From: Smithellaceae bacterium
GTDB taxonomy: Bacteria > Desulfobacterota > Syntrophia > Syntrophales > Smithellaceae
Assembly (NCBI GenBank): GCA_028704195.1
Contig: JAQVLL010000002.1
Coordinates: 1-24,479 of the forward strand
Length of the DNA stretch: 24,479 nt
Direction: 5' to 3'
Part shown: piece by piece, positions 7,472 through 22,315 of the stretch
How positions within the stretch are numbered: position 1 is the first letter of the stretch
Layout: every line of letters starts with the position of its first letter
Notes under the pieces: model-generated
Databases searched by the model: none
Told to the model about the DNA's origin: nothing
Seen by the model: the letters and a program-made list of their open reading frames with translations, nothing else
Translations under genes and position numbers: made by a program

Positions 7472-9235
7472 TCAACAGTCTCTTTTATGTGCCTTGACGA
7501 TCTGTGAACGGATCATGCGCGGAAGAATCAGATGATGTTGTGGACAGATGGAGCGCGGATTTTGATAAACGCAGTTGGCAAAGCCTACCAAATATTTGCG
7601 CAATTGATCATAACGCACGATCTCGTCGACGAAGCCCTTTTGGGCGCAATACAGCGGATTGGACGTGTCATCATAATGTTTAACCATTTCGTTCATCCTG
7701 TCGATCGTAGGTTGCAAAGACCGTCCGTCATCTTTTTCCTTGACCAGGCGTCGGGCGTATGTTGCCGCCGCCGCCGTTTCTCCGTGCATGACGTTGATCT
7801 CTGTCGCCGCCGTACCCAGCGAGAAGGCATTGTTGTTGTTGGCTACCGGTCCGCCCATGACATAATAGCCGGCCACGCTGCCTTTGCGCAGAACGATGAG
7901 CATCATTGCCAGCTGGGAATTTTCAATGGAATAAATCAGGGATTGTCCGAGGCCTAGCAGCTCTGCTTTTTCCGCATCATCACCAACGTCAATGCCACTG
8001 GTGTCCTGAATCCAGATGACAGGAATTTTATCTCGGGAACACAATGTGACAAATTCACTCATCTTGATCAAACCCTGGCGGTAGAGCCTGCCGCCCGTCC
8101 CTTCATAGGCTTTGGTGTACTCCGGATATTCCATGAAAGCTCCCTGCCGGTTGCCGATCACGCCTATCAGGTATCCATCGATCTTCACCAGGCCTGTATA
8201 GACTTCCGGGCCGAATCCGGGACAGAATTCCATGTGCTCGGAGCGGTCGACCAGTCTTGCCAGCACTTGCTCGAAATCATATACACTTTTTTTATCAACC
8301 GGAACAATCGAGGCAATTTCCGATGGCGGATATTTTGGCTGTGCAGGTTCGGCCACGCGGAAAAAGCGCGGCCTGAATGCGGGAAGATCGTCCATGTAAT
8401 CCCTGATGGCGTCGAGCACCTGTTTTTCTTCGTCAAAAACGGCACGGAAAAATCCGGTGACATCGTAATGAATTTTAACGCTGCCGGGCGGAACGGATTT
8501 AAAATGCCTGGTCGCGCTGATGATTTCCTCCGCCCGCGTTTCATTGTAGGTCCCTGCCGGATGGATGCCGCTGAGGATGCCGCCGCCACCCACAGCCATA
8601 TTCGCCTTCTTATGAGCAAGCAGAATCACCGGACTGACCGACTGGTAACCGCCGCCTGCAGGATTGGTGCCGTAGATACCGGCAATGACCGGGTTGCCCA
8701 TGATCTCCAGCTCTGCATGGCGATAGAAACAGGCCCCCTGACCCCGTTTTCCTGCATACACTTTTTCCTGTTCGGTGAGCTTGACGCCTGAACAGTTCAC
8801 CAGCCACACCAGCGGAATGTGCAGGAGTTTGGCGATGTCCGTGACCCGCAGGTTGTTGTCCGGCTGACCCGCGATCCACGCGCCCGCCATCCATTTGTTG
8901 TTGAAGCCGATGAGGACGCACCACTTGCCGCGGATGCGGGCCAGGCCGTCCACGACGCCGGTGCTTCCCGATTCCTCGTTCTCCGGATCAAAGATGCTGT
9001 GCAGCGGGCAGAAGGTCCCGGGATCCACCAGGTATTCGATGCGCTGCCAGACGCTCATCTCGCCGCGCTCGTTCAGTCTGGACAGTGGGACGCCTACGGT
9101 TTTGATACGCTCGACTTCGGCGTCGATTGCCTTCATGATTTCTTCGATCTTTGAGCAGTTTTCCCTCATGTTTTCGATTTCTATTTCGGAAAGCTGGCTT
9201 CCCAGCGGATCCATTTTTTCAAAATACTGCCTCAT
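7472..9235 (-). CDS. gcdA: Glutaconyl-CoA decarboxylase alpha-subunit-like carboxyltransferase (divergent)
   Basis: 587 aa; collinear with Acidaminococcus GcdA as recalled: GKWCVL, AGAW..GQ, VNCSGVK..EQEKVY, GIYGTNPAGGGY, QGLIKM, QDTSGIDVG..AEKAELLGLGQSLIYSI, GTAATEI.VM.GETAA. SD AGGAG. Confidence 0.82.
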   Translation of the reverse strand: MRQYFEKMDPLGSQLSEIEIENMRENCSKIEEIMKAIDAEVERIKTVGVPLSRLNERGEMSVWQRIEYLVDPGTFCPLHSIFDPENEESGSTGVVDGLARIRGKWCVLIGFNNKWMAGAWIAGQPDNNLRVTDIAKLLHIPLVWLVNCSGVKLTEQEKVYAGKRGQGACFYRHAELEIMGNPVIAGIYGTNPAGGGYQSVSPVILLAHKKANMAVGGGGILSGIHPAGTYNETRAEEIISATRHFKSVPPGSVKIHYDVTGFFRAVFDEEKQVLDAIRDYMDDLPAFRPRFFRVAEPAQPKYPPSEIASIVPVDKKSVYDFEQVLARLVDRSEHMEFCPGFGPEVYTGLVKIDGYLIGVIGNRQGAFMEYPEYTKAYEGTGGRLYRQGLIKMSEFVTLCSRDKIPVIWIQDTSGIDVGDDAEKAELLGLGQSLIYSIENSQLAMMLIVLRKGSVAGYYVMGGPVANNNNAFSLGTAATEINVMHGETAAAATYARRLVKEKDDGRSLQPTIDRMNEMVKHYDDTSNPLYCAQKGFVDEIVRYDQLRKYLVGFANCVYQNPRSICPQHHLILPRMIRSQIVKAHKRDC

Positions 9236-9255
9236 GGCTGACTCCTGTATCGGGG

Positions 9256-10413
9256 CTAAACCCGGTTTGGTGCAAATCCCATTGCCGCGTTGGCAACAAT
9301 CATGGTGTGCATGTTGGATGTTCCTTCCAGCGTTTCGAACTGCTTGGAGTCCCGCAGGAATCGCCCGCAGGGATATTCATCGGAATAGCCGAAGGAGCCG
9401 AACAGCTTCATGCATTCATTGGCGTCGTGAACAACAACTTTCGCACCGTATAGTTTGGACATGGAGGTTTCCATCACGTTGGGCATTCCTTTGTCCTTGA
9501 GCCAGGCAGCCTTGTACACCAGCGCCGCCAGGGTTTCGTGTCCGACTTTCATTTCCGCAACCTGCTGCTGAATCAGCTGGTACCTGCCGATCTGCTTTCC
9601 GAACTGACAGCGCTCCGTAGCGTATTTTGCAGAGGCGTCCAGGATCGCGCCGGAAAGGCCCAGTGCGCCCGCGGAGCAGCCCAGGCGTGTGGAATTGAGT
9701 TGCGTCATGCACATCTGGAACCCGCGGTTGAGCTTTCCAAGAAGAAGGCTTTTGGGTACTTTTACATCTTCAAAGGTGATCTCTGCCGTGTCGGCTGCCC
9801 ACAGTCCGACTTTATCGTTGATTTTTTTTCGGGTAACGCCGGGAAGGCTGTAGTCCATGATAAAGCAACTGATACCGTTGGCGCCCGCGTCCTTATCGGT
9901 TTTAACATACAGCAGACCGTGATTGGTGACGGTTCCGTTGGTGATCCACATTTTGTTTCCGTTGAGCAGATAGTAATCGCCTTTATCATCAGCGTGGCAT
10001 TTCATTGAAGCGACGTCGGAGCCGATATCCGGTTCGGTCATGGCAAAGCTGCCGATGTATTCACCGCTGACGAATTTTGGAATATAATGCTGCTTCTGCT
10101 CTTGGGTGCCGAATTTCTGGATGGTCAGCGCAGGGCCCCAGCACTGCATGTTGAAGGCCATCCGCCAAGAGGTGTGCACTTTGGCGATTTGTTCAATAGC
10201 CAGAGCACCTTCCAGGAAGCCCATGCCATTGCCGCCGTACTTTTCGTCGATGGAGAAGCCGAAAAAACCCAGCTCGGCCATCTTGTCGAATATTTCTTTG
10301 CGCCAGAAATGATTTTTCTCATCTTCCTCTACATGCGGCGCGATCTCTTTTTCGGCAAAACTTCTGGCCGTGTCCTGAATCATCGTTTGTTCTTCTGTTA
10401 ATGCGAAATTCAT
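9256..10413 (-). CDS. Acyl-CoA dehydrogenase resembling non-decarboxylating glutaryl-CoA dehydrogenase (385 aa)
   Basis: Start moved to the ATG at 10413 (SD GGAGGA). FAMTEPDIGSD, NGNKMWITN and catalytic E363 (TLEGTSN). R84/N88 match the carboxylate-binding R87/N91 of the Desulfococcus enzyme; C-terminal NR; 20 bp upstream of gcdA. Confidence 0.8.
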   Translation of the reverse strand: MNFALTEEQTMIQDTARSFAEKEIAPHVEEDEKNHFWRKEIFDKMAELGFFGFSIDEKYGGNGMGFLEGALAIEQIAKVHTSWRMAFNMQCWGPALTIQKFGTQEQKQHYIPKFVSGEYIGSFAMTEPDIGSDVASMKCHADDKGDYYLLNGNKMWITNGTVTNHGLLYVKTDKDAGANGISCFIMDYSLPGVTRKKINDKVGLWAADTAEITFEDVKVPKSLLLGKLNRGFQMCMTQLNSTRLGCSAGALGLSGAILDASAKYATERCQFGKQIGRYQLIQQQVAEMKVGHETLAALVYKAAWLKDKGMPNVMETSMSKLYGAKVVVHDANECMKLFGSFGYSDEYPCGRFLRDSKQFETLEGTSNMHTMIVANAAMGFAPNRV

Positions 10414-10560
10414 ATTGTTTATCCTCCGAGGCTTTTTCCTGTTGCCATTGCGAGCAGACCCTTGGTCTGCGCTGCAATCCCTAAAGCATAGGGAAGGGTT
10501 TGAATAACCTGACCACCTGAAGGTGGTGCGAGACCACGCGACCATTCCCTGTGATAAATG
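10414..10560 (-). other. Highly structured intergenic RNA segment (4 stems, alternative pairings)
   Basis: Perfect stems at 10454-10470 (GCAGACC/GGTCTGC), 10478-10494 (TCCCTA/TAGGGA) and 10512-10527 (ACCACCT/AGGTGGT); long-range pairing 10541-10550 with 10490-10499. Confidence 0.55.
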
Positions 10561-11829
10561 TTATTTTCGTTCAATAATTACGCATATTCCCTGACCGCCG
10601 CCGCCACAGATCGTTTCCAGTCCGAAACGCTTATCTGACCGCACCATTTCGTTGATCAGTGTGGTAAGGCGCATCGTGCCGGTTGCTCCGATGGGATGGC
10701 CGAGTGAAATGCCCGATCCGTTTACATTGACCTTCGCATCCATCTGCTCGTCGGAAATCCCCGAGAGTCTTGCATCCGCAAGGCACTGGACGGCAAAGGC
10801 TTCCTGTACTTCAATCAGGTCCATCTGATCGATGGTTGCGTTGATCTTTTTCAGCGCTTTTTCCACGGCCCCCGGAACCGCGGGGTAGGTAATAGTGGGG
10901 TCTGTGGCCGCTACAGCGCAGGAGCGAAAATAGGCCAGGGGTTTTACGCCCAGCTCTTTCGCTTTCTTTTCAGAAGCCATCACAACCACGGCCGCGCCGT
11001 CATTTTCCGACGATGAATTGCCCGCGGTGCAGATACCATCCTGATAAACAGGTTTCAGTTTGGCCAGGCGCTCCAGCGTGGTTTCCCGGCGCGGTCCCTC
11101 ATCTGTTTTCAGGTAAACCGTTTCACCGCTTTTTTTGTCAAGGCCTATGGGCACAGGAACAATTTCATCGGCGAACTTGCCAGCGTCCTGTGCCGCGATT
11201 GCTCTCTTATGGCTGCGCAGCGCCCAGCGGTCAGCTTCTTCGCGGGTGATTTTTTCTCTTTTGGCCGCCGTTTCAGCCCAGGTCATCATCGAGCTCAGTT
11301 CCCCGTAGCGCGCGATGGGCTGAGACATGACCCGCCCGCGCTGGATACGGTCATAAAAAGGAATGCCCCACATTGCCAGCGCTCCGTGGCCGCGGGGCAT
11401 GAACCCGTATTTTTCATGGTTTTTCCCGCCCAGTCCCCACTTGATGTCTCCGGGAATGTATAATTCTCCCTGGCTCATGGATTCCATGCCGCCGGCAATG
11501 ACCAGTTCGGCATTGCCTGTCTGGATTTTCATGGCTCCGTAAAAGATGGTATCCAGCCCCGAGCAGCAGCGTCTGTCCAGCATGATCCCCGGGATGGTGT
11601 CCGGCCAGCCTGCATCAAGCACGGCCATACGCGCTCCGTTGGCGCACTCGCCGTTCTGGTAGGCCGATCCCATGATGACATCATCAATGATGGCCGGATC
11701 GATCCCCGTTTTTTTTATTGCCGCCTGTAAAACAAGGCTTGCCAGCCGGTAAACAGGCACATCCCTGAACGCACCTCCGTATGCGCCGATGGGCGTACGC
11801 GCGCAACTGATAAAAACCACATTTTCCAT
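10561..11829 (-). CDS. Acetyl-CoA C-acyltransferase (thiolase)
   Basis: Start moved to the ATG at 11829 (SD GAGGTG). Catalytic Cys (DRRCCSG), NSSSENDGAA, QEAFA, NVNGSGISLGHPIGATG and C-terminal ICGGGGQG. Confidence 0.95.
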   Translation of the reverse strand: MENVVFISCARTPIGAYGGAFRDVPVYRLASLVLQAAIKKTGIDPAIIDDVIMGSAYQNGECANGARMAVLDAGWPDTIPGIMLDRRCCSGLDTIFYGAMKIQTGNAELVIAGGMESMSQGELYIPGDIKWGLGGKNHEKYGFMPRGHGALAMWGIPFYDRIQRGRVMSQPIARYGELSSMMTWAETAAKREKITREEADRWALRSHKRAIAAQDAGKFADEIVPVPIGLDKKSGETVYLKTDEGPRRETTLERLAKLKPVYQDGICTAGNSSSENDGAAVVVMASEKKAKELGVKPLAYFRSCAVAATDPTITYPAVPGAVEKALKKINATIDQMDLIEVQEAFAVQCLADARLSGISDEQMDAKVNVNGSGISLGHPIGATGTMRLTTLINEMVRSDKRFGLETICGGGGQGICVIIERK

Positions 11830-11881
11830 AAACCGCACCTCGATAGATGAATTGACGTTTTCTTATGTATCTTTCCTTTGT

Positions 11882-13549
11882 TCAGGCCACCGTTTCCACT
11901 CGCGGATCTGTTTGATAGACGGGGCTGTACATCTTTGATTTAATGAATCCCGGTAAATCTGATGGTTCTTTCATCGCAGTGAGTCGCCTGGCAAATGCCA
12001 GCCTGGCAACGGTTGTCGCAATATGGAGGGACACTTCTCGAATGCGTGACAGTGACGGAAAAATCCTGCCCAGTTCCAAATCCTCTGTGGTTGCTTTCTT
12101 GGCCACGCACGCGGCAGCCACGGAAAACATTTCATCCGTTACCCGGGTTGATTCTGAAGCCAGAACGCCCAGCCCGACACCGGGGAATATATAGACATTG
12201 TTTGCCTGGCCCGGAATAAAATTCTGACCATTGATAACGACCGGCGGAAAGGGACTTCCGCTTGCAAATACCGCGTGTCCGTTTGTGTGGCTGTATGCGT
12301 CCTGTGCTGAGCATTCCGATCGTGAGGTCGGATTGGAAAGTGCAAACACAATGGGACGTTCATTCCATTTGGCCATGGCCTGTAAAATCTCCGGGGTGAA
12401 TGCCCCGGACTGCCCTGATGCTCCGATGATGGCGGTTGGTTTGATGGCATTGACCGCGGAGAAAAGATCGCGATGGAAGGGAAAGTCGTGGGCAAAGCGG
12501 CTTTTGTGCTGCACAAGGTCCGTTCGGCTCTCGACAACCAGTCCTTGGGAATCAACAAACCAGCAGCGGCCACGGGCTTCATTTTCAGAAAGACCCTGAT
12601 TAATCATGGAGGTGACTACCAGATTTCCGATCCCCAGGGCAGCCTCTCCCGCTCCCAGAAACACCAGTTTTTGGTCGGTCATTTTACCGCCGGTCATGCA
12701 CAGTGCCGAATACAACCCGGCCAGTGCCACACCGGCTGTACCCTGGATGTCGTCGTCGAACATGCAGTAGCGATCCCGGTAACGGTCAAGCAGCCGGAAG
12801 GCGTTTTTGTTGCCGAAGTCTTCGAACTGAATCATGACATGAGGGAATGTTTTGCTGGCTGCCTCCATAAACTCATCCAGGAGAGCATCGTATTCCTCCC
12901 CCTGCAGGCGTTCCTCCGGCAGACCGATATATTCCGGGTCACTCCAAAGCCCTTTGTTGCCGGTGCCGACATCGATCATGACCGGCAGGCATGCGTTGGG
13001 CGCGATGCCCGCACAGGCCGTGTAAAGTGACAGCTTGCCCACGGGAATTCCCATACCGTTGGAACCAAGATCGCCAAGTCCCAGGATGCGTTCGCCGTCT
13101 GTTACCACAAGGATGCGAACTTCCTTGTGTGGCCAGTTGCGCAGAATGCTCCTGATGTGGCCGCGATGATGCTTTGTAATGAAGATTCCACGGGGGCGAC
13201 GGAAAACTTTGCTGTATTCCTGGCAGGCCAGTCCAACGGTCGGCGTATAGATAATAGGGCTCAGTTCTTCGAGGTGCTCGATGAGTGTTTTGTAGAACAA
13301 CTGCTCATTGCGATCCTGCAGACCGATCAGATAAAGGTATTTTTCAAGGTTGCTGGGTTTGCGGCGGACATTGTTCATGATGTGCTGAACCTGCTGCTGC
13401 TGAGAAGAAATAATCGGCGGCAGCAATCCTTCGAGTCCCAGTGCTTTACGCTCAGCAGCGGTGAAGGCGGTGCCTTTATTCAAGGCGGGATCATGCAGTA
13501 AATCGATCCCCAGGGGAAGTTCCTCAAGACCTGATGGATGTTTTGCCAT
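11882..13549 (-). CDS. Malic enzyme, large (MaeA/eukaryote-like) type, possibly NADP-preferring
   Basis: 555 aa; NKGTAFT..ER..LGLEGLLPP, IYTPTVGLAC, VTDGERILGLGDLG, IQFEDF, DDIQGT, GAGEAA, ALSNPT..SEC and GQANNVYIFPG. Confidence 0.95.
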   Translation of the reverse strand: MAKHPSGLEELPLGIDLLHDPALNKGTAFTAAERKALGLEGLLPPIISSQQQQVQHIMNNVRRKPSNLEKYLYLIGLQDRNEQLFYKTLIEHLEELSPIIYTPTVGLACQEYSKVFRRPRGIFITKHHRGHIRSILRNWPHKEVRILVVTDGERILGLGDLGSNGMGIPVGKLSLYTACAGIAPNACLPVMIDVGTGNKGLWSDPEYIGLPEERLQGEEYDALLDEFMEAASKTFPHVMIQFEDFGNKNAFRLLDRYRDRYCMFDDDIQGTAGVALAGLYSALCMTGGKMTDQKLVFLGAGEAALGIGNLVVTSMINQGLSENEARGRCWFVDSQGLVVESRTDLVQHKSRFAHDFPFHRDLFSAVNAIKPTAIIGASGQSGAFTPEILQAMAKWNERPIVFALSNPTSRSECSAQDAYSHTNGHAVFASGSPFPPVVINGQNFIPGQANNVYIFPGVGLGVLASESTRVTDEMFSVAAACVAKKATTEDLELGRIFPSLSRIREVSLHIATTVARLAFARRLTAMKEPSDLPGFIKSKMYSPVYQTDPRVETVA

Positions 13550-13596
13550 ACGGATCTTATCTCCATTCCCTAAGATACAGTCTGTTCGATGTTGTC

Positions 13597-13625
13597 ATTA
13601 TATTTTGTTTGCAGATATTTTTCCA
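13597..13625 (-). promoter_or_regulatory. Candidate internal promoter upstream of malic enzyme (sigma54-like TGGAAAA-N4-CTGCA overlapping sigma70-like TGGAAA-N17-TATAAT)
   Basis: GG/GC at exact -24/-12 spacing (13625-13610) and TATAAT at 13602-13597, in a 180-bp intergenic gap. Confidence 0.4.
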
Positions 13626-13729
13626 TTGTTTAAAGGAATATATCCGCTCCTTTGGATTATTTATCGTTTCAATCCCGGTTATGATTGCCTTTTTCCTTCT
13701 ACCTGTCCGGCCTTTCCTGTTGTAAAAGA

Positions 13730-15565
13730 TCAACTGACGATCAATGCTTCTTCCGGACAGGTGAGGACAGAATCTTCTTCGCTCTTGATGAGAGCGGCCA
13801 GCACAGGTGTTCCCGGCAGGATGTTGTTGAGGTAATACCTGGCTGATGCAATCTTTCCCTGGTAGTAATTGTAGTCCGCCTCACCTTCTGTTAACGTATC
13901 AAGCTTAGAGGCGGCAATCCTGGCCTGATCCATCAGGCACATCGACACGTACACTTTTGCGAATACAAACAAGGCCCGGATGGCATACAGCGGAATCAAC
14001 CGGCGTTTGTTTTTCAGATCGGCGTACCAGGAATCATAGGTCGCTCTTACATCAGCCGCTGCCTGATATCCTTTGTCCAACTGACTCATCTCTTTTTCAA
14101 AATTCGGCATATTCATGTTCGCGTCGATGAAGGACCTGATGTCCTGCATCCAGGCAGTAAAAGTAGTTCCTTCTTTCATGCGCATTTTGCGTCCGATCAG
14201 GTCATTGGCGTGAATAAACGAAGTGCCTTCCCAAATGGAAAGAATTTTGGAATCCCGCAGGTACTGTTCAACGGGATATTCCTGCGTGTATCCCACACCT
14301 CCCAGTACCTGAATCGCCTGAGTGATCACACCGACACTTGCCTCACTTCCGTAACACTTAACCAGCGGTGTCAGAATTTCCGCAAACGAACCGCATCTTT
14401 TCGCTTTTTCTTTATCGGGGGAATTATTCTCAATGTCCAGGTAGTAAAATCCCTTAAAGATCATGGCGCGGATGCCTTCAACATGGGCTTTCATATCCAA
14501 AAGCATCCGGCGAATGTCTTCATGCCTGATAATGGGCACGCGCTCGGCTCCTTTAACACCAAACGGTCTTCCCTGAATCCGTTCTGTTGCGTACTGCGAA
14601 GCAAAATAGCAGGCGGCGGCTCCCTGGGTATTGGCGTTATGGCCCGTTCCGATGCGCGACTCGTTCATCATATGGAACATCATGGCCAGTCCCTGGGAAA
14701 ATCCATTTGCGTCAGGCGCGGGTCCAAGCATAATGCCCCGGCAATTGTCTTCATCACCAAAATTTAAAAGAGTTGTTGCCTGGGCGTGCAACCCCATTTT
14801 ATGTTCAATCCCCACGGTAGTGACATCATTGGAGTCCCCCATAGATCCGTCATCATTCACCCAGTATTTGGGTACTATATAAAGACCGATTCCAGGAGAA
14901 CCCATGGCTCCTCCTTCAGGTCTTGCCAGCACCAGGTGGATGGTGTTTGCACACGTGCCCTGATCGCCGGCGGTGATGAACATCTTGGTTCCCTTGATTT
15001 TCCAAATGCGGGGATCATGGGTGGGGTAGGAACGGGTAATAATATCAACTATATCGGAGCCGAAATTGGGTTCGGTCAGGCACATCGTTCCCTGCCAGTA
15101 TCCTCCCAGCATTTTTGAGACAAACATGTCCTGATCCTTCTTTGTGCCGAAACGAAAAATCAAATTCGCCGCTCCCGAAGTAAGCTTTACACAGGAAGTC
15201 AGTGCCGGGCAGGCTGCCGTGTTGATTTCAGCATTAGCCTTGTACAGCATCAGCGGCATCCCTGTTTCTACCTTAATGCACTCACTTGATGATCCCCAGC
15301 CGTTTTGCTGCAGATATTGGTATGCCTCCTTGAAGCCGGGCGCCGGTGTTACAACGCCTTTGTCAAATTTGACGCCGATCTTGTCGCCCGGTGCGTTGAT
15401 GGGATGAACAATTTCCCTGGATACTTTGTAACCTTCATTGAGCAGCATATCGACATCGTCAAGCGTGAAATTGCCCTTGAATCGATCGCACGACAAGACT
15501 TCCTCTGTCGGAAGCCATTCTTTTAAAATAAACTTTAAATCCCTGATGTCATATTTAAATTCCAT
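13730..15565 (-). CDS. Long-type (~600 aa, FadE5/DmdC-like) acyl-CoA dehydrogenase
   Basis: 611 aa; GTMCLTEPNFGSD, IKGTKMFIT.G, IHLVLAR, IEHKMG, MFHMMNESR, LTPLVK, QAIQVLGGVGY..EYPVEQY.RD and catalytic IWEGT. Confidence 0.93.
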   Translation of the reverse strand: MEFKYDIRDLKFILKEWLPTEEVLSCDRFKGNFTLDDVDMLLNEGYKVSREIVHPINAPGDKIGVKFDKGVVTPAPGFKEAYQYLQQNGWGSSSECIKVETGMPLMLYKANAEINTAACPALTSCVKLTSGAANLIFRFGTKKDQDMFVSKMLGGYWQGTMCLTEPNFGSDIVDIITRSYPTHDPRIWKIKGTKMFITAGDQGTCANTIHLVLARPEGGAMGSPGIGLYIVPKYWVNDDGSMGDSNDVTTVGIEHKMGLHAQATTLLNFGDEDNCRGIMLGPAPDANGFSQGLAMMFHMMNESRIGTGHNANTQGAAACYFASQYATERIQGRPFGVKGAERVPIIRHEDIRRMLLDMKAHVEGIRAMIFKGFYYLDIENNSPDKEKAKRCGSFAEILTPLVKCYGSEASVGVITQAIQVLGGVGYTQEYPVEQYLRDSKILSIWEGTSFIHANDLIGRKMRMKEGTTFTAWMQDIRSFIDANMNMPNFEKEMSQLDKGYQAAADVRATYDSWYADLKNKRRLIPLYAIRALFVFAKVYVSMCLMDQARIAASKLDTLTEGEADYNYYQGKIASARYYLNNILPGTPVLAALIKSEEDSVLTCPEEALIVS

Positions 15566-15615
15566 GACGTGTTTCCTTATTGATTCTGCCTCAGGTCCAT
15601 GTAATCCGTTCAGGC

Positions 15616-17700
15616 TTATTTTGAGTAGAAGCCCTTTCCTTCCCTGGCAAGTCTCTCGAGGAGCGGTGAGGGGGTCCAGTATTCGGCGCCGACGAGATCC
15701 CTGTACTTCAGAATCGCATCGTAAACCTTCTTCAGGCCAACCGTATCGGCATAGAACATCGGGCCGCCAAGATAAACGGGGAATCCATAACCGTTGAGCC
15801 AGACGACGTCAATGTCGAGTGGACGAGCCGCGATTCCTTCTTCCAGAATTTTCGCGCCTTCATTGATCATAGAGTAAATTGCCCGTTCGATGATTTCCTG
15901 ATCGGTGATGGTGCGGCGGGGGATCCCGACTTCCTGAGAATGCCTGATGATGAGTTCTTCAATCATCGGATCGGGCGTTGCATTGCGCTTTTCGTCGTAT
16001 TGATAGAAGCCGGAACACGTCTTCTGTCCGAAACGCCCCATCTCGCAAATCTTGTCGATGATGTTGCATGCTTTTTCCCGTGGGGTCAACGAGTCGAATT
16101 TGGCCTTACGGTTTCGCCAGCCGATATCCAGGCCGGCCATGTCGCCCATGGCATAAGGGCCCATGGGGAACCCGAAGTTGTAGATGGTCTTGTCGATCTG
16201 CCATGGTAGTGCGCCTTCCTCAAGCATGAAACCGCATTCTCGGGTGCGCCTGGCCAGCATGCGGTTGCCGACAAATCCGTCGCAGACGCCGACCAGAACC
16301 GGCACTTTGCCGATGGCCCTGCCCACTTTCATGGCGGTGGCGTAAACGTCGGGCGACGTTTTTGCGCCGCGCACGTTCTCCAGAAGACGCATCACATTGG
16401 CGGGGCTGAAAAAATGCGTACCCATGACGTCCTGCGGCCTTTTGGTAGATGCTGCGATTTCGTCGATATTCAGATAGGATGTATTGGAAGCAAGAATGGC
16501 TCCGGGCTTGCAGATGGCGTCAAGTTTGCCAAAGACTTCTTTCTTTACAGATATGTCTTCAAAAACCGCCTCGATGACCAGGTCAACATTCTTCAGGTCG
16601 TCATAGGAAAGGGTCGGTGTAATCAGCGATAAGCGCTTATCCATAATTTCCTGCTTGATTTTGCCTTTGGCAACGGTGCTCGCGTAGTTTTTCCTGATGA
16701 CGGCAAGACCCTTCTCCAGCAATTCCTGTTTGACTTCCAGAAGGACAACGGGGATCCCGGCATTGGCAAAGCACATGGCAATGCCGCCGCCCATCGTACC
16801 CGCGCCCAGCACGCCCACGGACCTGACTTCCCGTGTCGGTTGATCATCGGGCAGCCCCGGTATGCGGACAACCTCACGTTCGGAGAAGAAAACATGACGC
16901 AGCGCTCTGGACTGGTCTGATGCCTGCAATTCCAGAAATATGGCACGCTCCCGTTTCATGCCTTCGGCAAAGGGGAGCTCGGTGGCGATTTTGACAGCTT
17001 CGATGCATTTGTACGGGGCGATGGCGCCACGGAATTTGCGGGCATTGGCTTTGGCAAAATCGTCAAAAACAGAAGGGGAATCGACTCTGGCCTGTCGTTC
17101 GCTCACTTTGCGGACAGGACGTTTTTCGTCAATCACTCTTTTAGCAAAGGTAAGCGCCTCTGCTTTCAGGTCACCTTCAATGATTGCATCGAGAATGCCC
17201 ATTTCTTTGGCCCGGGTCGCCGGTACAGGAACACCGGAGGTGATCATTTCCAGCGCTGCCTGCACTCCGGCCACACGGGGCAGCCGCTGCGTTCCACCCG
17301 CGCCGGGCAGAAGTCCCAGCTTCACTTCGGGCAGGCCCACCCTTGCGGATGACACGGCTATCCGGAAATGACAGCCCAGGGGAATTTCAAGGCCTCCGCC
17401 CAGTGCCGTTCCGTGAATTGCAGCGATGACCGGTTTGGGAGAATCCTCGATGAACTGGCAGACATCCGGCAAATAAGGTTCCATGGCCGGCTTGCCGAAC
17501 TCCCGGATATCGGCGCCTGCAATAAAAGTGCGTCCCTCGCACAGGATGATCATGGCCGAAACACTGTCGTTAGCAATGCCTTTTTCCAGACCTGCCTTGA
17601 TTCCGGCACGAACGGCCTGGGACAGGGCGTTTACCGGCGGGTTGTTAACGGTAATGATCCCTATGTTTCCTTCTTTTGAAAAACGTACAGCTTCTGACAT
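15616..17700 (-). CDS. Bifunctional enoyl-CoA hydratase/3-hydroxyacyl-CoA dehydrogenase (PimF/FadB-like)
   Basis: 694 aa; crotonase domain (NPPVNAL, FIAGADI, HGTALGGGLE, LPEVKLGLLPGAGGTQRLPR) plus HACD (GAGTMGGGIA, EAVFE, ASNTS, HFFSPANVM, GFVGNRM). Collinear with Rhodopseudomonas PimF as recalled. SD AAGGAG. Confidence 0.95.
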   Translation of the reverse strand: MSEAVRFSKEGNIGIITVNNPPVNALSQAVRAGIKAGLEKGIANDSVSAMIILCEGRTFIAGADIREFGKPAMEPYLPDVCQFIEDSPKPVIAAIHGTALGGGLEIPLGCHFRIAVSSARVGLPEVKLGLLPGAGGTQRLPRVAGVQAALEMITSGVPVPATRAKEMGILDAIIEGDLKAEALTFAKRVIDEKRPVRKVSERQARVDSPSVFDDFAKANARKFRGAIAPYKCIEAVKIATELPFAEGMKRERAIFLELQASDQSRALRHVFFSEREVVRIPGLPDDQPTREVRSVGVLGAGTMGGGIAMCFANAGIPVVLLEVKQELLEKGLAVIRKNYASTVAKGKIKQEIMDKRLSLITPTLSYDDLKNVDLVIEAVFEDISVKKEVFGKLDAICKPGAILASNTSYLNIDEIAASTKRPQDVMGTHFFSPANVMRLLENVRGAKTSPDVYATAMKVGRAIGKVPVLVGVCDGFVGNRMLARRTRECGFMLEEGALPWQIDKTIYNFGFPMGPYAMGDMAGLDIGWRNRKAKFDSLTPREKACNIIDKICEMGRFGQKTCSGFYQYDEKRNATPDPMIEELIIRHSQEVGIPRRTITDQEIIERAIYSMINEGAKILEEGIAARPLDIDVVWLNGYGFPVYLGGPMFYADTVGLKKVYDAILKYRDLVGAEYWTPSPLLERLAREGKGFYSK

Positions 17701-17756: not shown

Positions 17757-17772
17757 AGCAAATACCATACCA
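17757..17772 (-). promoter_or_regulatory. sigma54 (-24/-12) promoter of the catabolic operon
   Basis: Minus strand TGGTATG-GTAT-TTGCT matches TGGCACG-N4-TTGCW with exact GG..GC spacing, 56 nt upstream of the start, next to a divergent bEBP. Confidence 0.8.
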
Positions 17773-17890: not shown

Positions 17891-17920
17891 TTGACAAAAA
17901 TGTATTTATTGTATACAATA
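17891..17920 (+). promoter_or_regulatory. sigma70 promoter of the activator (TTGACA-N17-TACAAT) overlapped by the palindrome TATTGTATACAATA
   Basis: -35 at 17891-17896, -10 at 17914-17919; perfect 14-bp palindrome at 17907-17920. Confidence 0.75.
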
Positions 17921-17965: not shown

Positions 17966-19030
17966 ATGACGGGCATGAGCCATCAGCGCAAATATAAAAA
18001 AAATGAAACCGTTGGTCCGGCTGTTGCAAGGAAGGATCCCGCAGGGGAGAAGCTGGGAGCGGCATTTGACGAACTGATCGGCGCCAATGTTGCTTTTCGG
18101 GATGCCCTGATGACCGCCCAGCGGGCCGCTCAATCGGACATATCGGTTCTCATTATCGGGGAAAGCGGTACGGGGAAAGAAATTCTGGCGCGGGCCATCC
18201 ACCAGAGAAGCAGCCGCAGGGACAAGCCGCTGGTCGATGTCAATTGCGCAGCCATTCCGGACAGCCTGATCGAAAGCGAGCTTTTTGGATATGAACGGGG
18301 CGCCTTTACCGGAGCGCGCGCCGAAGGCCGAAAAGGCTATTTCGATGAGGCGCATGAAGGGACGATTCTGCTCGATGAGATCGGCGATTCCTCTTTATCC
18401 GTCCAGTCCAAATTATTGCGTGTGCTAGAATCCGGTTCCTTCAAAAGAGTCGGCGGGATGAAAAACATCAGGGTGAACGTGCGGATTATTTCTTCAACCA
18501 ACCAGGATCTTGCCGGTTTGATTGAAGAGAAAAAATTTCGTGAAGACCTTTTCTTTCGTTTGAATCCCTTCACGATTCTGCTCCCGCCGCTTCGTGAACG
18601 CATTGAAGACATCCCGCTTCTGGTTGATTATTTTTTGAAAAGCCACGATTTCGCAAGAAAGCAAAAATACAAATTTTCTCCTGATGCTTTCAGGGTCCTT
18701 CAAGGATATCACTGGCCGGGAAATGTACGGGAACTCAAAGGGGTTGTAAGCTATGCTGTGAATATGGCTCAATCGCCTTTGATTGATCCGTCGTCCCTGC
18801 CGAAATTTCTTTTTTCCGGACCGGACACGCCGCAAAATCATGGAAGGATAGTTCCTGGCGGTGTGGCCGCATCGTATAACCTTGTCGAATCGATTCGCGA
18901 TCTGGAACGTAAACTGATCACAGAAGCGTTAACCATTGCCCCAAACAAGTCGGCGGCCATTAAAATGCTGGGGATCAGCAGGAGGACCTTTTACCTGAAA
19001 CTGAAAGAATACGGATTGGATAAACAGTAA
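17966..19030 (+). CDS. sigma54-dependent activator (bEBP) with AAA+ and Fis-type HTH but no sensory domain
   Basis: 354 aa; GESGTGKE, VNCAAIP..LIESELFG, intact GAFTGA, LLDEIGD, FREDLFFRLN, WPGNVREL and C-terminal HTH; only ~30 aa precede the AAA+ domain. Confidence 0.93.
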   Translation: MTGMSHQRKYKKNETVGPAVARKDPAGEKLGAAFDELIGANVAFRDALMTAQRAAQSDISVLIIGESGTGKEILARAIHQRSSRRDKPLVDVNCAAIPDSLIESELFGYERGAFTGARAEGRKGYFDEAHEGTILLDEIGDSSLSVQSKLLRVLESGSFKRVGGMKNIRVNVRIISSTNQDLAGLIEEKKFREDLFFRLNPFTILLPPLRERIEDIPLLVDYFLKSHDFARKQKYKFSPDAFRVLQGYHWPGNVRELKGVVSYAVNMAQSPLIDPSSLPKFLFSGPDTPQNHGRIVPGGVAASYNLVESIRDLERKLITEALTIAPNKSAAIKMLGISRRTFYLKLKEYGLDKQ

Positions 19031-19082: not shown

Positions 19083-20090
19083 ATGACCATGAATGAAAAT
19101 CGGGCATCGGCAGGCAAATCTTTCAGGAAGAATGATGCGCAGGTTACCATCGTGGAAGTATCTCCGCGGGACGGTCTGCCGGAGATCTGCAAAGGTTTAT
19201 CTACAACAGATAAAATAAAATATATCAATAAATTGTCCGAAACAGGTCTCAGGAAAATCGAGTGTGCATCTTTCATGCACCCCCGTCTTTTGCCCCTGGG
19301 CTACGATGCAGAAAAACTGATCACGGGCATTTCCAAAAAACAGGGTGTGACCTATGTGGGGCTTGTTCCGAATGAAATCGGTTGCCGCCGCGCGATGATA
19401 ACGCAAATCGATGAAATCCTGATTCTTATTTCGGCAAGCGACACATTCAACAAACTGAATATCGGCAGGACGCTGAAAGAAAGCCTCAATAAAATGCTCC
19501 CCTCCATACTGGATACGGCGGTAAAAAACTCACGCAGTGTCCGCGCTTACATGATGACCGCCTTCGGCTGCCCTTACACGGGTAAAATCAGCCCAGAAGA
19601 CATCGTGCAGTTGGTGTTAAAACTCAGTTACATGGGAGCCTCCGAAGTTGTGCTGGTCGATTCCACCGGAATGGCAAATCCCAGGTCGGTTCAAGCGATG
19701 CTCCGCGTCCTGCTGGACTTGCAGCTTGACATCAATCTGGCTGTGCATTTTCACAACACGAGAGGAGCGGCGATTGCCAACTGCATGGCCGCCTATGATG
19801 CGGGTATCCGCGTTTTTGACACGTCACTGGGCGGGATGAGTGCGACACCTTACGGGGTAAGCGAAATGGACGTCGGCAGCTGGAATGTGCCGACGGAAGA
19901 TCTGGTCCATCTGTTTGAAGAAATGGGCATTCCGACGGGAGTTGATCTTGAAAAGCTTCTGGATTGTGTCCGTATGGCAGAGCAAATGGCCAGAATGCGC
20001 CTTCCCGGTCATCTGCTGCGGGCAGGCAAGTCATCTCAGATCGTCGGGGTACCGAAGCATCTGCAGCGGCATCCCATCATGGATCAATAA
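19083..20090 (+). CDS. HMG-CoA lyase-fold (DRE-TIM) protein with altered active site
   Basis: IVEVSPRDG, KIE, FGCPYTG, HFHNTRG and NVPTEDL. Canonical RDGLQ reads RDGLP and GLGGCPY reads GMSATPY. Start is ambiguous (19068 TTG, 19083 or 19089 ATG). Confidence 0.85.
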   Translation: MTMNENRASAGKSFRKNDAQVTIVEVSPRDGLPEICKGLSTTDKIKYINKLSETGLRKIECASFMHPRLLPLGYDAEKLITGISKKQGVTYVGLVPNEIGCRRAMITQIDEILILISASDTFNKLNIGRTLKESLNKMLPSILDTAVKNSRSVRAYMMTAFGCPYTGKISPEDIVQLVLKLSYMGASEVVLVDSTGMANPRSVQAMLRVLLDLQLDINLAVHFHNTRGAAIANCMAAYDAGIRVFDTSLGGMSATPYGVSEMDVGSWNVPTEDLVHLFEEMGIPTGVDLEKLLDCVRMAEQMARMRLPGHLLRAGKSSQIVGVPKHLQRHPIMDQ

Positions 20091-20118
20091 ATCGATGCGG
20101 TTCTAAAACCGCGTCGAT
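20091..20118. terminator. Terminator hairpin between convergent genes
   Basis: ATCGATGCGGTT-CTAA-AACCGCGTCGAT, a 12-bp stem with one G-U pair; T-rich tail on the minus strand. Confidence 0.7.
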
Positions 20119-20158: not shown

Positions 20159-22315
20159 CTACAGTTTCAATCCTTTTTTGATTCTCTCGAGCATGGCCTT
20201 TTCATCGTCGTCGTATGGTCCGTCCACCAGGCAGAGTCTGCGGGCAATGCTGAGGGCCTCAAATCGGTCGTCCTTGTCCTTGATCAGGACCGATAAGGTA
20301 TTGAACGCTTTATCCTCGTCAGCCTGAAGGATAGCGACCTGCTCATGCATAATTTTTTTAAATTGTGGTGCACTCAGTTTCTTGAGGACCTTGTGAGTTC
20401 TGGCGATTTCGTTGCCGATTTCAAAATGCCGTCTTTTCACGTGCTGACCGATTTTGGCAATGGCCACGTACACTCGTATTAAACCGGCGGCCAAACCTCC
20501 TTCTTCCATCGCCAGCAGGCGCTTGTCGTAATCAGCGCGCTCATGTTCCGGCAGCTCTCTGGACGGTTCTTGCGGTGCAGGCGGGAATAAACGCCTCAGC
20601 CAATCACTGCCGTAAATATTTTTAAACAGCTGCTCCTGGCTTAAGTCACGATAGTCGCGATAAATATCAAGAACATTTTCGACATATTCGGAAATAGATT
20701 TCTCCATGGCGTTAAAGGGGTTGTCTGTCGCCGCGGGCTTTCGGTTCTGCCGCGTGATCGATGCGATATTTTTAAGCGGTCGCATCAAGGGATTGATGTC
20801 GGCAAACAGGTAACGCTGGAGGCGGAGCGGATGCAGATAACGGATGACTTCCGCGGAAAGCTCCGTGGTCCAGAATTTTACCCACGGACGCGCGAGCAGT
20901 TGATAGACGTTATCATTGGCTTCGGATATTTTTGCCACCACACTGAAATCTGTTTCGTCTGTTGTTCCGTCATCATAGGCGGCTATGTCCGCAAATGTCC
21001 GCGGCTCAAAATGAGTGGTGAATTTGCCGCTCATGACATCGCCTTCGATCACCATTTCGTAAAGGCCGGGGCTCAAGAAATCAATCATGTCAAAATTGCC
21101 AATGATCTCGTTGTGTTCTTTTTTGGCTACGGATCCCGCAACAAAAATTCCCAGATGGCCGATTTTTTCATGGACAATGTAGATGATGACCTGCCCATGC
21201 CTTTTGATGTCTTCCACGGAGGAATAAACGCGGGGAATCCAGTTGAGCGCCTGCTGGGTAGGGGTGATGTTGTCACCCTGCGATGCGAAAACAATAATCG
21301 GACTTTCGATATTCTTCAGGCTGATCTTCTGACCTTCCTGCAGCTCAAGCTGTCCCTGTTCCAGTTTGTTGCCGACAAAAAGGTTTCGGACGATATAGTG
21401 GATTTCGTCGGTGTTCATCATGAAGAAACCGCCCCACCATTTTTCAAAGTTGAGATATCGATCCTCCTCCTTATCCACCTGCGAATAAACATTGTACTGC
21501 TTGGTCCAGAATGTGTTGGACGGATTGAGCAGCTCCATGTTCAGAACCAGGTTGGCGCCGTCAAAAACTCCGTTGCCAAGATCACTGAAAAAGGAATTGA
21601 CCCAGACGCCGCCTAACAGACCGCCTTTGTAGCGCATGGGATTGACTCCTTCGACTCCGCTCCAGTAAGACAAGGGCGCGCCGTTCAGCACCAATGGTCC
21701 CGCGACATCGGGTCGGTCCGCACAAGCCAGTGCCGCTGCCCAACCCGCCTGGCAGTTACCTATAATGGCCGGGGCGTCTGCTTCAGGGTGTAATTCGACC
21801 ACTTTCTCAATGAACGTTTCGATGGCTTCAATCACATCCGCCATGGTCTGTCCGGGGATAGGGTCCGTATAAAAGAGGATAAAATAAACCGGGTGGCCGT
21901 GTTCGAGCGCCATGCCGATTTCCGAATCGCGCTTGGACCCGCCGATCCCGGGACCGTGGCCGGCGCGGGGATCAATAATCACAATGGGCCGTTTTGGCCT
22001 TGTTACCCGTTCCCTGATCTTGTCCCGGCGATCGTCGACAACCTTTTGGATGTCGGCGCGGCGGCGGTCGGAAATTTTGACCAGTGCGTAATTGGCGGGT
22101 CGTTCAAAATTCTTGGCGTTAAGGATCATTTCGTAATTATACGTCAGCACCGGCGGCTGGCCGCTGCGGAGATGTTTGATGTAATTGTTGCCTCTTTTGC
22201 GTAAAATATCCGTGAAAATGATGGACCGCTGCAGGGAATCCACCATGTATTCGCCCAGATGCTTTTGCCAGTCGGACCACTGTGCGGTTTGATCATCACC
22301 GGTTTGTGTATCCAT
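20159..22315 (-). CDS. DUF3141-family PHA-synthase-like alpha/beta hydrolase
   Basis: 718 aa; DPRAGHGPGIGG, Cys nucleophile box GNCQAGW, GAPLSYWSG, NPSNTFWTKQY, FEKWWGG, ASQGDNITP and GHLGIFV (Cys-Asp-His triad). SD AAGGAG. Confidence 0.85.
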   Translation of the reverse strand: MDTQTGDDQTAQWSDWQKHLGEYMVDSLQRSIIFTDILRKRGNNYIKHLRSGQPPVLTYNYEMILNAKNFERPANYALVKISDRRRADIQKVVDDRRDKIRERVTRPKRPIVIIDPRAGHGPGIGGSKRDSEIGMALEHGHPVYFILFYTDPIPGQTMADVIEAIETFIEKVVELHPEADAPAIIGNCQAGWAAALACADRPDVAGPLVLNGAPLSYWSGVEGVNPMRYKGGLLGGVWVNSFFSDLGNGVFDGANLVLNMELLNPSNTFWTKQYNVYSQVDKEEDRYLNFEKWWGGFFMMNTDEIHYIVRNLFVGNKLEQGQLELQEGQKISLKNIESPIIVFASQGDNITPTQQALNWIPRVYSSVEDIKRHGQVIIYIVHEKIGHLGIFVAGSVAKKEHNEIIGNFDMIDFLSPGLYEMVIEGDVMSGKFTTHFEPRTFADIAAYDDGTTDETDFSVVAKISEANDNVYQLLARPWVKFWTTELSAEVIRYLHPLRLQRYLFADINPLMRPLKNIASITRQNRKPAATDNPFNAMEKSISEYVENVLDIYRDYRDLSQEQLFKNIYGSDWLRRLFPPAPQEPSRELPEHERADYDKRLLAMEEGGLAAGLIRVYVAIAKIGQHVKRRHFEIGNEIARTHKVLKKLSAPQFKKIMHEQVAILQADEDKAFNTLSVLIKDKDDRFEALSIARRLCLVDGPYDDDEKAMLERIKKGLKL

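Follow-up and report, generated by a model that had tools for sequence, protein, structure and literature searches.

We analysed a 24,479-nucleotide stretch of DNA from a Smithellaceae bacterium (contig JAQVLL010000002.1 of assembly GCA_028704195.1; hereafter the window) and report on one of its genes, whose product is a paralogue within the hydroxymethylglutaryl-coenzyme A (HMG-CoA) lyase family and is called HMGLv here. HMGLv represents a conserved, selected subfamily of the HMG-CoA lyase family that has its own predicted sigma-54 switch and has probably been misannotated. Because its metal site is kept, two catalytic residues are lost and an activator of its own constantly accompanies it, HMGLv is probably a C-C lyase for a substrate other than HMG-CoA, misnamed by automatic annotation. 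More specifically, we lean towards the reading that it is a neofunctionalised HMG-CoA-lyase paralogue, which would be an active, divalent-metal-dependent DRE-TIM C-C lyase with a changed substrate and/or proton-transfer mechanism. What is new relative to a preliminary description of this gene is an insert in the signature loop, a predicted sigma-54 promoter belonging to HMGLv itself, and strict co-inheritance with the activator as a two-gene module.

The residues that HMGLv shares with HMG-CoA lyases were located from its codons and from HMMER alignments to the enzymes of B. subtilis (1ydo, E 4e-65), A. baumannii (6nds) and human (2cw6). In the human lyase, R41, E72, Y167 and C266 are critical for catalysis and D42, H233, H235 and N275 are the metal ligands (PMC6941031); the preliminary description had taken the Cys (human C266) to be needed for efficient HMG-CoA cleavage. 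The four metal ligands correspond to D30, H222, H224 and N268 of HMGLv, which were unchanged in every aligned member of the clade described below, while the counterparts of human R41, E72, Y167 and D204 are retained as R29, E60, Y156 and D193. Comparison of the published residue list with the HMGLv alignment therefore indicates that all listed residues are retained except the Cys. The residues that the preliminary description had called kept, namely the Arg-Asp pair (R29-D30, 19167-19172), the Glu (E60) of KIE (19254-19262), the HFH motif and the Asn of NVPTED (N268), were all found in place, and the D30, R29 and E60 triad together with H222-x-H224 on a TIM barrel is what defines a DRE-TIM metallolyase.

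The same alignments bore out, position by position, the four replacements that had been described: Gln to Pro33 in the RDGLQ active-site helix (19179-19181), GLGGCPY to GMSATPY, GN to WN (W267-N268, 19881-19886) and SFVSPKWVPQ to SFMHPRLLPL (19269-19298). Within the loop, GGMSATPY of HMGLv aligns with GGLGGCPY, such that Gly-Gly has become Ser-Ala and the Cys has become Thr255 (19845-19847). Where canonical lyases carry the signature G-[LI]-G-G-C-P-[YF] with Cys266, HMGLv thus reads G-M-S-A-T-P-Y, and four additional residues follow directly after the PY. In canonical enzymes the loop Cys is catalytic and the counterpart of R29 is the carbonyl-polarising Arg, and the helix Gln and loop Cys are the residues that handle the acetyl-CoA enolate.

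These replacements are shared by a whole clade. A search of 5.8 billion proteins returned 120 close homologues (63-91% identity), which come from metagenome bins named Smithella, Smithellaceae, 'Syntrophaceae' or 'Deltaproteobacteria', and we compared them with a wider-family set of 141-143 representatives of 50%-identity clusters. RDGLP was present in 116 of the 120 clade members, compared to Gln at the same column in 140 of 141 family representatives. Ser253, Thr255, Pro256, Gly258, Gly265 and Trp267 were each invariant in the clade (120/120), the loop insert was kept at 4-6 residues, and D263 of the loop was kept in 111/120 members; at columns 253, 254 and 255, the family representatives carry Gly (140), Gly (135-136) and Cys (124/143) and, in the Trp267 column, Gly (136). 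Ten family-conserved positions were altered in the clade (G27S, Q33P, V65T/M, Q72x, T194S, G253S, G254A, C255T, A265G and G267W), all located in the RDGLQ, SFV..PQ and D-T motifs and the signature loop. Judged from these alignments, the pattern of substitution relative to the wider family is far beyond chance. Among the family representatives, the Gln was lost only in the HMGLv clade, in its nearest representative P0121 (RDGLA) and in one other; the more distant branch formed by genome G017 and P0121 keeps Thr255 and Trp267 and has Ala at the Gln position.

Pairwise ratios of nonsynonymous to synonymous substitution rates (dN/dS) for HMGLv were 0.07-0.17, with the adjacent activator gene in the same range. 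In a maximum-likelihood tree the HMGLv clade was monophyletic (support 100), and the long stem branch that it has in common with its sister representative P0122 (0.63, support 99) was followed by short internal branches, the shape that a functional shift with subsequent conservation would be expected to leave. RDGLP / MS[AGN]TP[YF] / WN marks a conserved monophyletic clade, a question that the preliminary description had posed for RDGLP and SATPY, and with 120 homologues and dN/dS of 0.07-0.17 the substitutions are neither private to this genome nor under relaxed selection. The preliminary description had named the combination of these two conditions as a refutation of its reading, and this outcome therefore speaks in its favour.

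HMGLv remains close to HMG-CoA lyases in sequence and fold. It matches the Pfam HMGL-like family PF00682 (E 4e-34), and its AlphaFold model, built from a 106-sequence alignment, reached a mean predicted local distance difference test (pLDDT) score of 91.1 and a predicted template-modelling (TM) score of 0.89. Confidence dropped to ~73 pLDDT solely in the rewritten loop and at both termini, as expected for a flexible loop. The top Foldseek matches of the model were the HMG-CoA lyases 6nds, 1ydo, 3mp4 and 2cw6 (TM 0.83-0.94, root-mean-square deviation (rmsd) 1.7-2.1 Å), with the synthases, aldolases and carboxyltransferases of the superfamily ranking far below; the weaker matches comprised isopropylmalate and homocitrate synthases, 4-hydroxy-2-oxovalerate aldolase and the carboxyltransferase of oxaloacetate decarboxylase. 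Compared to HMG-CoA lyases of EC 4.1.3.4 (human HMGCL 2cw6/3mp3, B. subtilis YngG 1ydo, A. baumannii 6nds and P. aeruginosa LiuE 2ftp), HMGLv is 36-42% identical, adopts the same fold within that rmsd range, has a similar length without extra domains, and shares the metal ligands and the active-site Arg, Glu, Tyr and Asp. It differs from them in having Pro for the helix Gln, Thr for the loop Cys, Ser-Ala for Gly-Gly, the 4-6-residue insert and Trp for Gly before the Asn, and in a glutaryl-CoA/beta-oxidation context with predicted sigma-54 control rather than the leucine catabolism context of HMG-CoA lyase. An ESM Atlas search with HMGLv returned nothing beyond generic HMGL-like clusters. Public records that carry a name for HMGLv homologues use 'hydroxymethylglutaryl-CoA lyase', and our literature search for HMG-CoA lyase in combination with Syntrophus, Smithella or Syntrophaceae yielded no paper treating the enzyme in these organisms.

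Canonical lyases occur alongside HMGLv. In a sample of 121 genomes of the order, an HMGL homologue was detected in 76, while members of the HMGLv clade (51-100% identity) were found in just eight. Two genomes of the window's genus, G054 and G084, each carry HMGLv plus a second, canonical-like HMGL match, and the G054 copy reads GPRDGLQ, GGLGGCPY and GN. This copy lies in locus L063 (G054:C23, 4071-10022), where genes for an acyl-CoA dehydrogenase, a carboxyltransferase and a crotonase (enoyl-CoA hydratase) precede two tandem HMGL-like genes, an arrangement of the classical leucine/isovalerate type. Going by these gene contents, the canonical HMG-CoA lyase role in same-genus genomes is filled by the Cys-bearing copy, of which the one examined sits in a leucine-type operon. 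In the window's own genome HMGLv was the one family member detected, and a canonical copy may still exist there because the assembly is 85% complete.

The first gene of the L063 tandem (7825-9012) encodes a 395-residue Cys-less protein with a 16-residue loop insert, and the second (8979-10022) encodes the canonical 347-residue lyase; such tandems of Cys-less and canonical HMGL-like genes recur in several genomes of the order. The Cys-less tandem proteins of Syntrophales (395-398 residues) resemble HMGLv in having an HMGL-like domain, in missing the loop Cys and in occurring in the same order. However, they are only 28-31% identical to HMGLv, keep the Gln, carry the 16-residue insert and are missing the GN/WN motif, and by sequence they form a separate lineage.

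The gene that precedes HMGLv encodes a predicted sigma-54 activator, and the two are inherited together. At a threshold of E<=1e-90, the order genomes with an orthologue of the activator (60-74% identity) were precisely the 8 of 121 that carry HMGLv, and no matches fell between E 1e-122 and 1e-90. The activator adjoins HMGLv in all eight of these genomes, co-directionally in six and convergently in G017 and G037, and it adjoined HMGLv in 20 of 20 further loci with upstream sequence (among 21 loci from named Smithella and Smithellaceae bins). The outer flanks of these loci varied, with FadB, an OadA-like gene plus malic enzyme, or thiolase upstream and DUF3141 or HlyD downstream. Within the family, 28 of the 46 genomes from the window's genus carry HMGLv, as do 11 of the 15 from a second genus, compared to 0/36, 0/13 and 0/3 in three others, and the module was also found in two further families of the order (f11 and f17). 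Four near-complete genomes of the window's genus (G193, G214, G216 and G226) were missing both genes, while G189 carries both, with the lyase truncated by a contig end. Taken together, co-occurrence, adjacency and joint absence indicate that the activator and HMGLv behave as a single accessory unit. At locus L077 of one of the module-less genomes (G214:C47, 7375-11909), DUF3141 abuts fadB and the pair is missing at this site.

Some orthologous activators carry an N-terminal extension of ~100 residues with the shared motifs …SDAAAI… and …VYVYLL…, namely those at L050:8530-9927, L059:2177-3505, L035:10594-11958(-), L036:10446-11723(-) and L037:5379-6677 (L050, L059, G111, G050 and G081); a PAS signal was weak and detected in L059 only (PAS_8, E=0.003). 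As read from these sequences, the window's activator and most of those in Smithella have lost this extension. In architecture alone, the arrangement is reminiscent of PspF/PspA and HrpS/HrpV, in which a partner protein controls a sensor-less sigma-54 activator in trans: here too, an activator without an N-terminal domain lies beside a gene that it probably transcribes. Unlike in those systems, the putative partner here has an enzyme fold, and some of the orthologous activators keep the N-terminal extension.

HMGLv also has a predicted sigma-54 promoter, TGGAATGACTTATGCA, which sits between the activator stop codon and the HMGLv start codon. A consensus scan of the window alone was not above chance (101 matches compared to 114 expected), so that a single sigma-54 match is uninformative and the weight rests on conservation of this non-coding element across orthologues that are 57-90% identical: 18 of 21 loci have TGGAAY-N5-TATGCW in the same position, and the element of L047 differs from it by one base. 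The window's genome contains rpoN (as a fragment, on contig C56). With a -24 GG/-12 GC promoter, rpoN and an adjacent co-inherited activator, HMGLv has the features of a putative sigma-54-dependent gene.

A second predicted sigma-54 promoter, TGGTATGGTATTTGCT, precedes the divergent fadB-type operon and is the stronger of the two. The fadB gene of G214 retains a sigma-54 promoter, TGGCATGGTATTTGCC, at the site where the activator and lyase pair is missing, and another activator must therefore be able to drive fadB. A palindrome, TGTATTTATTGTATACA, lies ~130-150 bp upstream of the divergent sigma-54 promoter. Of the 21 scanned loci that carry the pair, 18 have TGTAT-N7-ATACA in this position (it was unmatched there in L052, L036 and L037); the palindrome was also present in G189 and G017 and was missing from the four module-less loci. 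It is probably the binding site of the activator, for which it is the best candidate, and an autoregulatory operator. A second copy was observed just downstream of the lyase gene in L052 and L054-L057. GGACYRTCC palindromes, which are present in the window, were also considered as activator sites and were rejected since they were not conserved in other loci. Downstream of HMGLv, none of 200 shuffled sequences was as stable as the hairpin that separates it from the convergent DUF3141 gene, and although this hairpin has no clear U-tract, it is probably a terminator, which would make HMGLv monocistronic in the window.

Features of the window, in window coordinates, with the evidence on which each assignment is based
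Feature	Position	Strand	Basis
HMGLv, DRE-TIM barrel, 335 residues	19083..20090	+	Uninterrupted translation, Pfam, NCBIfam, HMMER
R29-D30-G-L-P33; Arg and metal-binding Asp retained, Gln of the RDGLQ helix replaced by Pro	19167..19181	+	Codons, HMMER alignment
H222-F-H224, metal-binding HxH motif	19746..19754	+	Invariant in the clade and the wider family
Rewritten signature loop G250-N268: GLGGC to GMSAT, insert of 4-6 residues (…SEMDV…), Gly to W267 before N268	19830..19886	+	Alignments
Sigma-54 activator, AAA+ and Fis-type helix-turn-helix domains, 354 residues, without N-terminal sensor domain	17966..19030	+	Pfam
TGGAATGACTTATGCA, predicted -24/-12 (sigma-54) promoter for HMGLv, ~30 nt upstream of its start codon	19038..19053	+	GG/GC at canonical spacing, conservation
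Predicted sigma-54 promoter of the divergent fadB-type operon, TGGTATGGTATTTGCT	17757..17772	-	TGGTAY-N5-TTGCT conserved in 21/21 loci
Sigma-70-type promoter of the activator gene, TTGACA-17-TACAAT	17891..17919	+	Consensus match, 11/12
17-bp palindrome TGTATTTATTGTATACA, TGTAT-N7-ATACA, overlapping the sigma-70 promoter of the activator	17901..17917		Conservation
Probable terminator, a 12-bp hairpin where the HMGLv and DUF3141 genes converge	20091..20118	.	-18.5 kcal/mol, z-score -5.7
Neighbouring operon: FadB-type hydratase/dehydrogenase, long acyl-CoA dehydrogenase, malic enzyme, thiolase, glutaryl-CoA-dehydrogenase-like enzyme, GcdA-like carboxyltransferase	7472..17700	-	Pfam, NCBIfam

The operon divergent from the activator lies outside the module and is metabolic context, which consists of glutaryl-/glutaconyl-CoA and beta-oxidation genes. 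The neighbours of HMGLv in the window are the sigma-54 activator, the DUF3141 gene and this fadB/glutaryl-CoA operon rather than genes for leucine/isovalerate breakdown or ketone-body metabolism such as those of methylcrotonyl-CoA carboxylase and methylglutaconyl-CoA hydratase. Downstream of HMGLv in G050 and G081, and in the same orientation, lie genes for a long acyl-CoA dehydrogenase, a thiolase and GcdA, and Pfam additionally identified a crotonase and a GcdB-type OAD_beta subunit at the G050 locus. The G017 gene ends a cluster that encodes a CoA ligase, an acyl-CoA dehydrogenase, two hydroxyacyl-CoA dehydrogenases, a major facilitator superfamily transporter and an enoate-reductase-type flavoprotein. 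Based on these neighbourhoods, HMGLv always lies among acyl-CoA enzymes.

Further observations concern the genes around the module. The GcdA-like carboxyltransferase of the window (7472-9235, minus strand) is without a membrane subunit in the window, while in G050 (L036:2280-5430, minus strand) an OAD_beta (GcdB-type) Na+-pump subunit comes next. At L050:6821-8242 (minus strand), a 473-residue OadA/PycB-like carboxyltransferase with HMGL-like and PYC_OADA domains and no biotin domain lies between the malic enzyme and the activator, and a gap of the same size occupies this position in four Smithella loci (L043, L044, L046 and L053). HpaB-family genes, of the family that includes 4-hydroxybutyryl-CoA dehydratase, recur close to the module in two further families of this order (L036:16987-18495 and L038:16088-17536). 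The DUF3141 protein (718 residues; 20159-22315, minus strand) has weak similarity to polyhydroxyalkanoate synthase, and its gene, which is outside the conserved pair, converges on the lyase gene in most of the loci from Smithella.

The scheme that we consider most consistent with these observations begins with the activator, which would switch on HMGLv, and probably also the divergent fadB-type operon, through the TGTAT-N7-ATACA palindrome. HMGLv may then cleave or form a 3-hydroxyacyl-CoA other than HMG-CoA, using the longer loop that has replaced the canonical Cys-bearing one and in which S253, T255, P256, G258, G265 and W267 are invariant. Since the G050 operon, with its carboxyltransferase, hydratase and lyase, follows the logic of the leucine pathway minus the methyl group, the most economical choice of substrate would be the des-methyl analogue 3-hydroxyglutaryl-CoA, the product of glutaconyl-CoA hydration, which would yield acetyl-CoA and malonate semialdehyde; a 3-substituted 3-hydroxyglutaryl-CoA is a possible alternative. 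Trp267 might fill the space of the missing methyl group, and an acid or hydroxyl of the loop might replace the Cys. That HMGLv is a natural 3-hydroxyglutaryl-CoA lyase is, however, a guess that we hold to be quite unlikely as it stands. Cleavage of 3-hydroxyglutaryl-CoA has been put forward as a new pathway step, catalysed by HMG-CoA lyase, in a 2026 preprint on synthetic CO2-fixation cycles. The preliminary description had suggested new chemistry, by another 3-hydroxy-dicarboxyl-CoA lyase or a Claisen synthase; the canonical lyase coexisting in the leucine-type operon of G054 and the long stem branch are consistent with new chemistry.

Several points weigh against a changed function. HMGLv scores 275.8 bits on the NCBIfam model NF004283 'HMG-CoA lyase', above the cut-off of 246, although the margin is narrow and the model type is 'subfamily' rather than equivalog; it is the sole family member detected in G111, G050 and G081 (95-98% complete) and could therefore serve as the HMG-CoA lyase there; and the loop Cys is missing in ~13% of family representatives, so the loop alone, as seen in the alignments, is no proof of new function. 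In addition, the operon genes sampled (FadB- and GDH-type (glutaryl-CoA-dehydrogenase-type) orthologues) are retained at 81-96% identity in module-less genomes, which makes HMGLv an add-on and not an obligate step of the glutaryl-CoA pathway, and by our own reasoning a branch through a 3-hydroxyglutaryl-CoA lyase would bring no evident gain in energy over the Na+-pumping decarboxylation of glutaconyl-CoA. The first three of these points would fit an ordinary HMG-CoA lyase with a drifted loop, in which another residue has taken over the role of the Cys and which would act in leucine/isovalerate or 3-methylglutaryl-CoA breakdown, as would the resemblance of the G050 operon (acyl-CoA dehydrogenase, crotonase, carboxyltransferase, lyase) to a leucine-type cluster. 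We nevertheless regard this explanation as rather unlikely: the critical Cys and a ~99%-conserved Gln were both replaced and the replacements were then frozen, the genus also has a fully canonical copy situated in a true leucine-type operon, and the adjacent carboxyltransferase groups with a glutaryl-CoA-dehydrogenase-like gene, not with isovaleryl-CoA dehydrogenase. HMGLv could also work in the condensing direction or on a non-CoA substrate, as a Claisen/aldol-type synthase or a 2-oxo-acid aldolase like those of other Cys-less DRE-TIM branches. Isopropylmalate, homocitrate and citramalate synthases and 4-hydroxy-2-oxovalerate aldolases do have the same fold and metal site while lacking the Cys, and both residues lost from HMGLv are ones that act on the acetyl-CoA enolate. 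This possibility seems doubtful to us, since in sequence and structure HMG-CoA lyases (E 4e-65, rmsd 1.7 Å) are far nearer to HMGLv than any synthase or aldolase match (E 1e-7 to 1e-12, rmsd >3 Å), and since HMGLv carries no regulatory or dimerisation domain at its C terminus such as synthases have and has lost the Gln that synthases generally keep.

The strict pairing with a sensor-less activator makes attractive a different idea, part of which the preliminary description had raised as a ligand-binding pseudo-enzyme: HMGLv might be a non-catalytic protein that binds metal and acyl-CoA and, in trans, serves its sigma-54 activator as sensor or anti-activator. This would give a metabolite-gated switch like PspA/PspF, made from a DRE-TIM lyase fold, with the product of the target gene feeding back on the activator. 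Such a role would account for co-inheritance and adjacency, for the window's activator having no room for a sensor domain (265 bp to fadB), for HMGLv being monocistronic behind its own predicted sigma-54 promoter, and for the retention of binding residues where two catalytic ones are gone. On the other hand, the ~100-residue extensions on orthologous activators, with their single weak PAS signal, indicate that a trans sensor was not needed ancestrally, and removal of the N-terminal domain often makes such activators constitutive. HMGLv also lies inside enzyme operons in G050, G081 and G017 and is convergent with the activator in G017 and G037, its R29, E60, Y156 and D193 are conserved as in active enzymes, and we know of no precedent for a DRE-TIM regulator. 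On this evidence, we judge the pseudo-enzyme improbable and keep it at low weight. That HMGLv is a decaying or recently inactivated gene, as the loss of two catalytic residues might suggest, is refuted by a frame that is open in dozens of genomes, the dN/dS values, the invariant loop and the conserved promoter; clade-wide motif conservation and the dN/dS range therefore support the earlier statement that this is not a decaying pseudogene.

Two links to known chemistry were considered for HMGLv and set aside. We rejected its identification as the 'novel ring-opening lyase' of anaerobic naphthalene degradation, since a 2025 review shows that lyase to be an AtuA-like ThnQ/ThnS pair, not a DRE-TIM protein. 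The enzymes of propionate dismutation in Smithella are described as unidentified (PMC13685792). HMGLv is unlikely to be such a long-sought enzyme, because the module is accessory within the genus (28/46 genomes) and also occurs in families f11 and f17. A C5 route through malonate semialdehyde would release C1 of propionate as CO2, which we counted against the propionate link; de Bok and colleagues reportedly found in 2001 that label never reaches bicarbonate in propionate dismutation. Glycyl-radical enzymes, used as a proxy for alkane activation, occurred in 39 of the 47 genomes examined from the genus, irrespective of whether these carry the module, and did not track it.

Since HMGLv homologues are named 'hydroxymethylglutaryl-CoA lyase' despite two lost residues, metabolic reconstructions of Smithella and related syntrophs may credit these organisms with leucine or ketone-body chemistry that they do not have. 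The clade also provides a clean natural experiment in changing the catalytic loop of a DRE-TIM lyase, and its dedicated regulator and promoter could be used to find the inducer of HMGLv. If the substrate is indeed 3-hydroxyglutaryl-CoA or a related dicarboxylyl-CoA, HMGLv would constitute a new exit for anaerobic glutaryl-CoA metabolism and would supply an enzyme sought by pathway designers (2026 preprint).

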